DNA of 64,000 nt, taken from an uncultured Lachnospiraceae bacterium. GTDB lineage: Bacteria > Bacillota > Clostridia > Oscillospirales > CAG-272. The position numbers and the translations under genes were made by a program. The DNA lies in the NCBI GenBank assembly GCA_964403505.1, contig CAYOFP010000005.1, positions 7,655-71,654 on the forward strand. Reading direction: 5' to 3'. The notes under the pieces were generated by a model. It saw only the letters and a list, made by a program, of their open reading frames with translations, had not been told where the DNA came from and made no database searches. This document shows positions 44,293 to 44,568 of the stretch, in pieces (positions within the stretch are counted from its first letter, which is position 1; each line of letters starts with the position of its first letter).

Positions 44293-44568
44293 TGAGCTGA
44301 CGAGAGTCGAACCCCGACGTCCGTGGACGGAGTGGGCGGCACGCTTACGCACTGTGTGATTTTGACATATATTATATGTCTGCAATCCCACGGAGCAAAA
44401 TCGCACTCGCCCGCTCCGCCCACAGATGCAAAGCATTTCTCGCAGAACAGATTTGTGCTCGCAAAAGGCAAAGTACGCAGGCAATATACAATATTGCCAA
44501 GGACTTTAACGCATTGCGTGTGCAAATCTGCCTGCGAGAACCGCCGGAGTTCGACTCTCGTCAGCTCA
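44293..44568. other. unclassified nested-helix element closed by a perfect 20-bp helix/terminal inverted repeat
   Basis: TGAGCTGACGAGAGTCGAAC (44293-44312) is the exact reverse complement of 44549-44568. Nested internal helices occur at 44332-39/44416-23, 44364-80, 44439-55/44523-38, 44470-74/44503-07 and 44480-98. There is no credible ORF. Confidence 0.6.

Follow-up and report, generated by a model that had tools for sequence, protein, structure and literature searches.

A probable MITE-type insertion in the closing stem of a cobalamin riboswitch from uncultured gut Clostridia

What kind of object is a 276-bp segment of nested inverted repeats that lies between the end of a protein-coding gene and the start of a cobalamin riboswitch? 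The question is raised by a 64,000-nt stretch of contig CAYOFP010000005.1 from an uncultured Lachnospiraceae bacterium, referred to below as the window. An inspection of the bare letters, here termed the sequence-only reading, had placed the segment at 44293-44568 and considered a novel structured small RNA, a MITE (miniature inverted-repeat transposable element) whose terminal inverted repeats measure 20 bp, or an orphan retron-like msr/msd. Comparison with related loci indicates that the element is probably a non-autonomous DNA transposon of the MITE type, ~270 bp long, non-coding, and representing an undescribed low-copy family of gut Clostridia. The kind of element is ordinary; the family is undescribed. 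The MITE-like reading is favoured because the element occupies two unrelated loci, is matched by empty sites, is flanked by junction repeats, has sharp ends, decays in its interior, and shows conversion between its arms.

The element and its copies at a second locus

The whole element (44293..44568, strand not assigned) is delimited by its inverted repeat and by the points at which homology to the copies at a second locus stops. The 20-mer TGAGCTGACGAGAGTCGAAC is found at 44293-44312 (+) and again at 44549-44568 (-), the two sites being perfectly complementary (20/20). No further site was detected in the 64-kb window, even with up to three mismatches allowed, and shuffling predicts 0.01 matches. 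The inverted repeat can be extended to 27 nt (44293-44319 versus 44542-44568), of which 25/27 are paired, corresponding to 93% complementarity. Neither terminal repeat is assigned a strand. In the left one (44293..44319), the first 20 nt are perfect and the outer TGAG is the counterpart of the TAAG junction repeat seen elsewhere. In the right one (44542..44568), GTTCGACTCTCGTCAGCTCA agrees at every position with the right arm of the UBA7273-type copies described below (100% identity). The consensus of the terminal inverted repeat, over 20-27 bp, reads (C/T)(A/G)AGCTGACGAGAG(C/T)CGAAC.

When folded as RNA, the element adopts a Y shape, in which the closing helix carries two long imperfect hairpins without assigned strand, both recognised by fold and self-match. 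These are arm 1 (44320..44426), with the apex GACATATA-T-TATATGTC, and arm 2 (44437..44540), with the apex GGCAATAT-ACA-ATATTGCC. The perfect 20-bp closing helix and all nested helices named in the sequence-only reading were recovered: the inner helix GTGGGCGG/CCGCCCAC, the hairpin GACATATA/TATATGTC at 44364-44380, the helices TTCTCGCAG/CTGCGAGAA and CAGATTTG.../...CAAATCTG, and finally AAAGT/ACTTT and GGCAATAT-ACA-ATATTGCC, both of which lie within the minimum-free-energy fold. The fold energy is -147.3 kcal/mol for the + strand (z = -13.5) and -159.5 kcal/mol for the - strand (z = -13.6). On either strand, 0/200 shuffled sequences folded as stably as the element.

A search of 185,579 species-representative genomes for the exact 20-mer gave a single contig and locus, in Clostridiales bacterium UBA7273, and 20 human-gut metagenome contigs contain it as well. 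All of these matches fall at a single locus that is unrelated to that of the window and is located between a GH94 glycoside hydrolase gene and ylxM-ffh. The host is a common human-gut Clostridiales species resembling UBA7273. The full form at this ylxM locus measures 267 nt; with 276 bp in the window, both sizes are inside the MITE range. Its right arm is identical to the 20-mer of the window, the left arm (TAAGCTGACGAGAGCCGAAC) differs at two positions, and the two arms are complementary at 18-19/20 positions.

Homology between the window element and the ylxM copies comprises the terminal arms and arm 2 (~72%) and ends at the limits of the inverted repeat. Because similarity stops there, the conserved unit extends from repeat to repeat and includes neither promoter nor terminator. 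Arm 1 cannot be aligned between the two loci, although it forms a long hairpin in both. The terminal 20-mer is 100% conserved between species, compared with ~72% for arm 2, a pattern that would fit a protein-binding terminal repeat.

Further traces of the element were found in the window and in related contigs, which are cited here by working labels (L001 and so on). A remnant of the two ends (CGAAGCTGTCGGGTCTCGTCAGCTTA; 50933..50958, strand not assigned) matches the ylxM-type arm at 17/18 positions and is located between two minus-strand genes. It overlaps the stop codon of a shikimate kinase gene (50951-51472, -) and lies upstream of a polysaccharide deacetylase gene. In a sister species, the contigs L024 (1-125), L025, L028, and L029 begin within the element's right half, present in a diverged form upstream of the riboswitch promoter. 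The contig L027 (1478-1580) of the same sister species carries a simple hairpin instead, indicating presence and absence within a species at a slightly different position. In L006 and L008, different left-hand genes are joined to the same TAAGCTGA end, as either recombination between copies or independent insertions could explain. Mobility is thus evidenced by two unrelated loci, a remnant, a third diverged copy, and empty sites at both loci.

Coding capacity and known RNA families do not account for the element. No open reading frame is conserved between copies, and the stop-free frames differ in strand and frame, so that the element is regarded as non-coding. Searches with Rfam 15 gave no match at gathering or permissive thresholds, apart from a 13-nt T-loop-like stretch aligned to the tmRNA model (7.3 bits, E = 1.1); element copies in 13 related loci gave no Rfam match. 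ARAGORN detected no tRNA or tmRNA in the element at the default or the 80% threshold. The Pfam analysis, which covered all window open reading frames of at least 220 aa and the small neighbours, revealed housekeeping genes, a hipBA-like pair, and a Fic protein, and no transposase, reverse transcriptase, or recombinase domain. The neighbours of the ylxM copies are GH94, YlxM, and Ffh, and no recombinase or reverse transcriptase was found beside them. A consensus scan identified no promoter inside the element. These scans agree with the earlier inspection by eye, which had seen no frame of coding character, no signature of RNase P, tmRNA, SRP, 6S, or tRNA, and no adjacent reverse transcriptase or transposase gene; the Rfam scan, which had been named as a check, produced no family match.

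Several other identities were tried and rejected. An intrinsic terminator for the upstream gene is not supported, as no U-tract follows the closing helix. The sequence CUGACGAG...CGAAC resembles a hammerhead ribozyme core by eye, with helix II of only 1 bp, one A of the GAAA missing, and no Rfam match. The motifs of attC, dif, or IS200/IS605-type ends were unfit on inspection.

Insertion sites and decay of the interior

In the window, the element is preceded by a gene for a TPR repeat protein (42850-44265, +) and followed by the aptamer core of a cobalamin riboswitch (RF00174; 44576..44704, +), which was detected with 40.3 bits at model positions 48-166. Both genes flanking the element are on the + strand. 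Between element and core lies GCAAC (44570..44574, +), the remnant 5' strand of the riboswitch stem P1. This was identified by alignment with L046 and L049, the P1 call itself being taken from L027, whose Rfam alignment is full-length. The 3' strand of P1, GTTGC (44706..44710, +), pairs with 44570-44574, as judged from the sequence and the comparison with L046, L049, and L027. In relatives, the ancestral 5' strand of P1 reads TAAGGCAAC or TAAGGCAGC, and the element was inserted at the TAAG there. The insertion point is therefore the 5' strand of the P1 stem. In the window, P1 is reduced to GCAAC/GTTGC; the riboswitch core still reaches 40 bits, and the downstream open reading frames are intact. 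The suggestion that the element could influence the riboswitch leader, made previously on the grounds of adjacency, is apt in light of this position.

Empty sites are available for both loci. At the ylxM locus, relatives with the same two genes, an intact intergenic region, and YlxM proteins that are 86-91% identical show ...ATATATTCGGCA-TAAA/TCGG-TGACAAG.... The filled site reads ...TTCGGCG-TAAG(CTGACGAG...GTCAGCTCAAGT)TAAG-TGACAAG..., with the insert in parentheses. At the riboswitch locus, the relative L049 has the TPR stop codon followed by ...ATCATTGC-TAAG-GCAGCGGAAC, which is the 5' strand of P1, and its riboswitch begins ~16 nt past the stop codon. The closest relatives found, L045 and L046, carry a 71-nt sequence at this locus with TAAG on both sides. 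In L046, the ends of this sequence resemble decayed arms at the same positions (13/20 and 14-15/20). L027 and L047, which are more distantly related, possess a promoter-like leader, and their riboswitch is complete (model positions 1-189), compared with a window match that starts at model position 48; the element is absent from L027.

TAAG, TAAA, or TCGG occurs once in the empty sites, and TAAG is present on both sides of the ylxM insert and of the L046 remnant. In the window, the left junction is TGAG in place of TAAG and pairs with CTCA on the right. On that side, the TAAG has been lost. Two independent inserts have on either side a sequence that the empty sites contain only once, an arrangement that looks like a target-site duplication of TA or TAAG. 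A check for a duplication had been suggested at 44285-92 and 44569-76. Only a 3-nt AGC/AGC pair abuts the arms there, which, judged against the relatives, is no clean duplication. The AGC/AGC flank was also considered as the 3-bp target duplication of an IS3-like element with TG...CA ends and was rejected, as both triplets are ancestral in relatives.

Two side observations concern the riboswitch leader. The segment 44457-44471 (GCTCGCAAAAGGCAA), which is part of arm 2, is complementary to 44707-44731 (TTGCCTTT...TTTGCGAGC) through perfect matches of 8 bp and 9 bp. The latter region comprises the 3' strand of P1 and the expression platform, and AAGGCAA is also the ancestral 5' strand of P1 in relatives; the complementarity may represent a competing pairing, or chance. 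Separately, the closest relative L046 has a 69-nt palindromic insertion (~445-515; alignment columns 152-220) in the variable region of its cobalamin riboswitch. It is absent from the window and constitutes another hairpin-forming insertion of the same leader.

The interior of the element is subject to deletion. Forms of 267, 165, 150, 125, and ~40 nt as well as a solo arm were found at the single ylxM locus, and every deletion is bounded by direct repeats of a few bases. In an unbiased set of ten long contigs, selected by YlxM identity, the 165-nt form predominates (7/10), followed by the 267-nt form (2/10) and the solo arm (1/10). The 165-nt variants are devoid of arm 2; since they make up seven of these ten loci, the interior of the element is dispensable. 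The arms, in turn, are homogenised. In L051, changes at the two diagnostic positions have turned the right arm into the left arm's reverse complement, resulting in 19/20 matching positions, compared with 18/20 in other ylxM-type copies. The arms of the window element are both of the other type than those of L051 and match at 20/20 positions. Such arm-to-arm conversion is known from quasi-palindromes, in which template switching can give rise to hairpins and preserve them with no selection acting on RNA (PMC7202029, PMC8794818).

These comparisons lead to the following course of events. The element inserted at a TAAG (or TA) target, the short sequence being present on both sides of the ylxM insert and of the L046 remnant. 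Its movement would depend on a transposase that recognises the repeats, is provided in trans, and is not encoded in the window. In the lineage of the window, the element landed in the 5' strand of P1 of the cobalamin riboswitch, directly downstream of the TPR gene. After insertion, it evolves as unstable palindromic DNA, with the interior being lost through deletions between short direct repeats and the two arms being held complementary by arm-to-arm conversion. The TPR gene and the riboswitch operon are presumably co-transcribed, as suggested by the distance of only ~16 nt between TPR stop codon and riboswitch in L049. In such a transcript, the insert may fold on itself into a closed Y domain, consisting of a 20-27-bp closing helix and two hairpins. 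This domain would bring the flanks together, so that the riboswitch core could still form. By analogy with the Correia elements of Neisseria, the long closing duplex is a plausible substrate of RNase III (PMC2649163, PMC10969869).

Strand asymmetry and competing explanations

Several observations weigh against a MITE-type transposon. The first group concerns copy number: the 64-kb window contains one full copy and one remnant, no extra copy was found in ~354 kb of related loci, and the exact 20-mer occurs at one locus only among the species-representative genomes. An ordinary many-copy MITE, as might have been expected from the first proposal, is not what was found; the terminal repeats, two loci, empty sites, junction repeats, and lack of coding capacity stand. 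Neither an autonomous partner nor a transposase carrying these terminal repeats turned up in the plasmid, phage, and viral collections, where the only matches were true tRNAs. Moreover, the G+C content of the element is 52.5%, compared with 47.4% for the window, and thus lacks the AT-richness that is typical of MITEs, although not defining. The junctions are also imperfect. The length of the junction repeat is ambiguous (TA or TAAG), the window copy has no right TAAG, the AGC/AGC flank abutting its arms is no true duplication, and the ylxM copy has seven extra bases (CTCAAGT) ahead of the right TAAG. In an unconstrained local alignment, the L046 remnant does not resemble the arms significantly; its likeness to them rests on position.

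The contigs L022 and L023 start in a hairpin loop of the element, equivalent to window position 44488, and the contigs L001, L002, L005, L013, and L017 start inside the ylxM copy, at various points where deletion variants co-occur. Because public assemblies systematically break inside such elements, these are under-represented in contig collections.

A further group of contrary observations relates to the two strands. The strand 5'-TGAGCTGACGAG, which is the minus strand of the window, folds better in 15/16 copies; its G-U pairs number 9-11 in most copies of full length or 165 nt, versus 1-6 on the other strand. A simple replication skew was rejected as the source of this G-U asymmetry, as the ylxM copies have a GC skew (-0.195 on the + strand) that runs counter to their surroundings. 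Strand asymmetry is not predicted by a cut-and-paste DNA element. In addition, 18 base pairs, nine of them in arm 2, are changed on both sides between the window and the ylxM copies. These compensatory pairs could result from selection on a folded single strand rather than from conversion at the DNA level.

One rival is a free-standing structured non-coding RNA gene, transcribed from the minus strand of the window and having the Y fold as its functional product. The extremely stable fold, the better folding and richer G-U pairing of the minus orientation, a G/T enrichment that is specific to the element and not explained by local skew, the compensatory changes, and the unpaired motif CTTTAACGCA, which is conserved between both loci, all point in this direction. 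Such a gene is nevertheless unlikely. The conserved unit stops at the closing helix and brings neither promoter nor terminator, no promoter-like site lies within it, and close relatives are without the element at both loci. Arm 2 is the sole internally conserved part and is deleted in 7/10 unbiased UBA7273-type loci, with further deletions being tolerated. Nothing in the window drives minus-strand transcription at this position, the flanking genes being on the + strand, and Rfam contains no matching family. The compensatory changes may also arise by template switching from arm to arm, which is directly seen in L051 (for the mechanism, see PMC8794818, PMC7202029). Arm-to-arm conversion thus offers an explanation of the 18 pairs at the DNA level. 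Covariation among homologues, another check named at the outset, takes the form of these double-changed pairs, which conversion between the arms can mimic.

A mobile, strand-specific structured module, which would be more than a passive MITE, is a minor alternative that is compatible with the G-U asymmetry, the element-specific skew, and the complete conservation of the 20-mer across species. Here, a single-stranded form (RNA or single-stranded DNA) of the strand 5'-TGAGCTGACGAG would be under selection, which is considered improbable on the present evidence. In one version, the module could move via a single-stranded intermediate. In a second version, the self-closing Y fold could act as an RNA insulator or processing cassette, with an RNase III entry site and a tRNA-like arm, that is harmless in structured leaders such as P1 of a riboswitch.

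An invertible DNA switch, in which a site-specific recombinase flips the segment by means of the 20-27-bp inverted repeats, would account for suitably long inverted repeats that enclose ~230 bp of leader directly upstream of a riboswitch, and for arms that are far better conserved than the interior (100% versus ~72%). It is very unlikely in view of the orientation of the element, which is the same relative to the flanks in all interpretable contigs (at least 31 for the ylxM locus and three for the window species). The two diagnostic arm mismatches, at positions 2 and 15, never occur in the recombinant combinations expected from inversion. No recombinase is encoded in the window or beside the ylxM copies, although the enzyme could act in trans, and empty sites with a junction repeat point to insertion rather than to a resident switch.

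The terminal arm also has a tRNA-like appearance, which could suggest a decayed tRNA or tmRNA gene, or else an integration site formed from the 3' end of a tRNA. The arm GGAGTTCGACTCTCGTCAGCTCA matches the 3' end of tRNA-Ala from Clostridioides difficile at 20/22 positions, the likeness comprising the T-loop and the 3' half of the acceptor. Over 18 nt, the arm is the same as the 3' terminus of a phage tRNA, and Rfam aligned 13 nt to the T-arm of tmRNA. This origin is highly improbable: the matches, with E-values of 1-5, are such as any T-loop-like motif would give in view of the abundance of tRNAs, and those in a phage contig and in C. difficile plasmids are real tRNAs. The T-stem is not formed, the G3-U70 pair is missing, ARAGORN remained negative at the 80% threshold, and integration sites yield direct rather than inverted repeats.

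A retron-like msr/msd RNA, as initially suggested, resembles the element in overall shape, with paired ends (the a1/a2 helix) enclosing msr and msd hairpins, and is scarcely credible given that no reverse transcriptase lies next to either locus or anywhere in the window, that insertion is polymorphic with junction repeats, that the arms are freely deleted, and that the element is mobile on its own boundaries.

Genomic surroundings and comparison with known systems

The genes near the window element encode, according to Pfam, TPR, DUF4430, HipA, IMPDH, and Fic proteins. The DUF4430 gene (44790-45224, +) is located 3' of the riboswitch. Between the DUF4430 operon and IMPDH lies a hipBA-like toxin-antitoxin pair (HipA_C and HTH_31; 45806-47398, -). 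It is a small inserted island, since the sister species (L024) has IMPDH directly after the operon. A Fic/DOC gene with an HTH domain is present at 41086-41985. Two matches to the Gut-1 RNA (RF01706) were found at 13733-13804 (+) and 42492-42566 (-), with 64 and 70.6 bits, respectively. Each adjoins tRNA genes, namely a tRNA-Gly/Arg/His array (13434-13700) and a tRNA-Ser gene (42600-42688). This constant adjacency suggests that Gut-1 is tRNA-related or co-transcribed with tRNAs. An IstB_IS21 match at 5765-7730 (-) is located beside a gene with a DnaB_2 domain and represents a helicase-loader pair of the DnaI/DnaB type, not an IS21 element.

As a probable MITE-type transposon, the element introduces a hitherto undescribed MITE-like family, carried by uncultured Clostridia that are abundant in the human gut; strand asymmetry aside, specialists in mobile elements would not be surprised by it. 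It provides a clean natural case of a transposon in the closing stem of a riboswitch that leaves the aptamer core and the downstream genes undestroyed, and it explains the assembly breaks at this position. It also illustrates that a striking "nested-helix RNA" signal can originate from palindromic mobile DNA. Since arm-to-arm conversion can mimic compensatory evolution, caution is advisable in pipelines for the discovery of non-coding RNAs.

Among known systems, the invertible leader switches of C. difficile (cwpV, flgB, and cmrRST) are similar in dimensions. They are RecV-dependent, span ~150-300 bp, and have inverted repeats of ~20 bp or more. They are located in 5' leaders, sometimes next to a riboswitch, and their recombinase is encoded elsewhere. 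The present element differs from them in that no inversion was found in at least 34 contigs, and in that its empty sites and junction repeats signify insertion.

The Correia elements of Neisseria (CREE/nemis) are likewise short, non-coding, and intergenic, with terminal inverted repeats of ~26 bp and a short duplication at the junction. Their terminal repeats pair in transcripts to form a long duplex that RNase III can cleave, which changes how neighbouring genes are expressed (PMC2649163; PMC10969869). Correia elements measure 100-155 bp, number in the hundreds, contain an IHF site, and can give rise to promoters at their ends. In contrast, the window element is ~270 bp long, Y-shaped with two internal hairpins, of very low copy number, and unrelated in sequence; cleavage by RNase III would follow only by inference.

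Further relatives in kind are ERIC, RUP/BOX of pneumococcus, bcr1 of the Bacillus cereus group, and the QMITEs of Coxiella, which share the non-autonomous nature, the terminal inverted repeats, and the age-dependent decay of the direct repeats. Their transcripts form stable stem-loops, and their presence varies among strains (PMC3184786, PMC2229807, PMC10969869, PMC5896051). The present element has no sequence similarity to any of them, belongs to another host clade (uncultured gut Clostridia), and is distinguished by its insertion in a riboswitch stem and by the marked G-U asymmetry of its strands. Prokaryotic MITEs as reviewed measure ~50-500 bp, possess terminal repeats and decaying direct repeats, give transcripts with stable folds, and occur in copy numbers down to one per genome (PMC10969869). 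In size, terminal repeats, and stable fold, the element agrees with this description, with which its decaying junction repeats and low copy number are also consistent.

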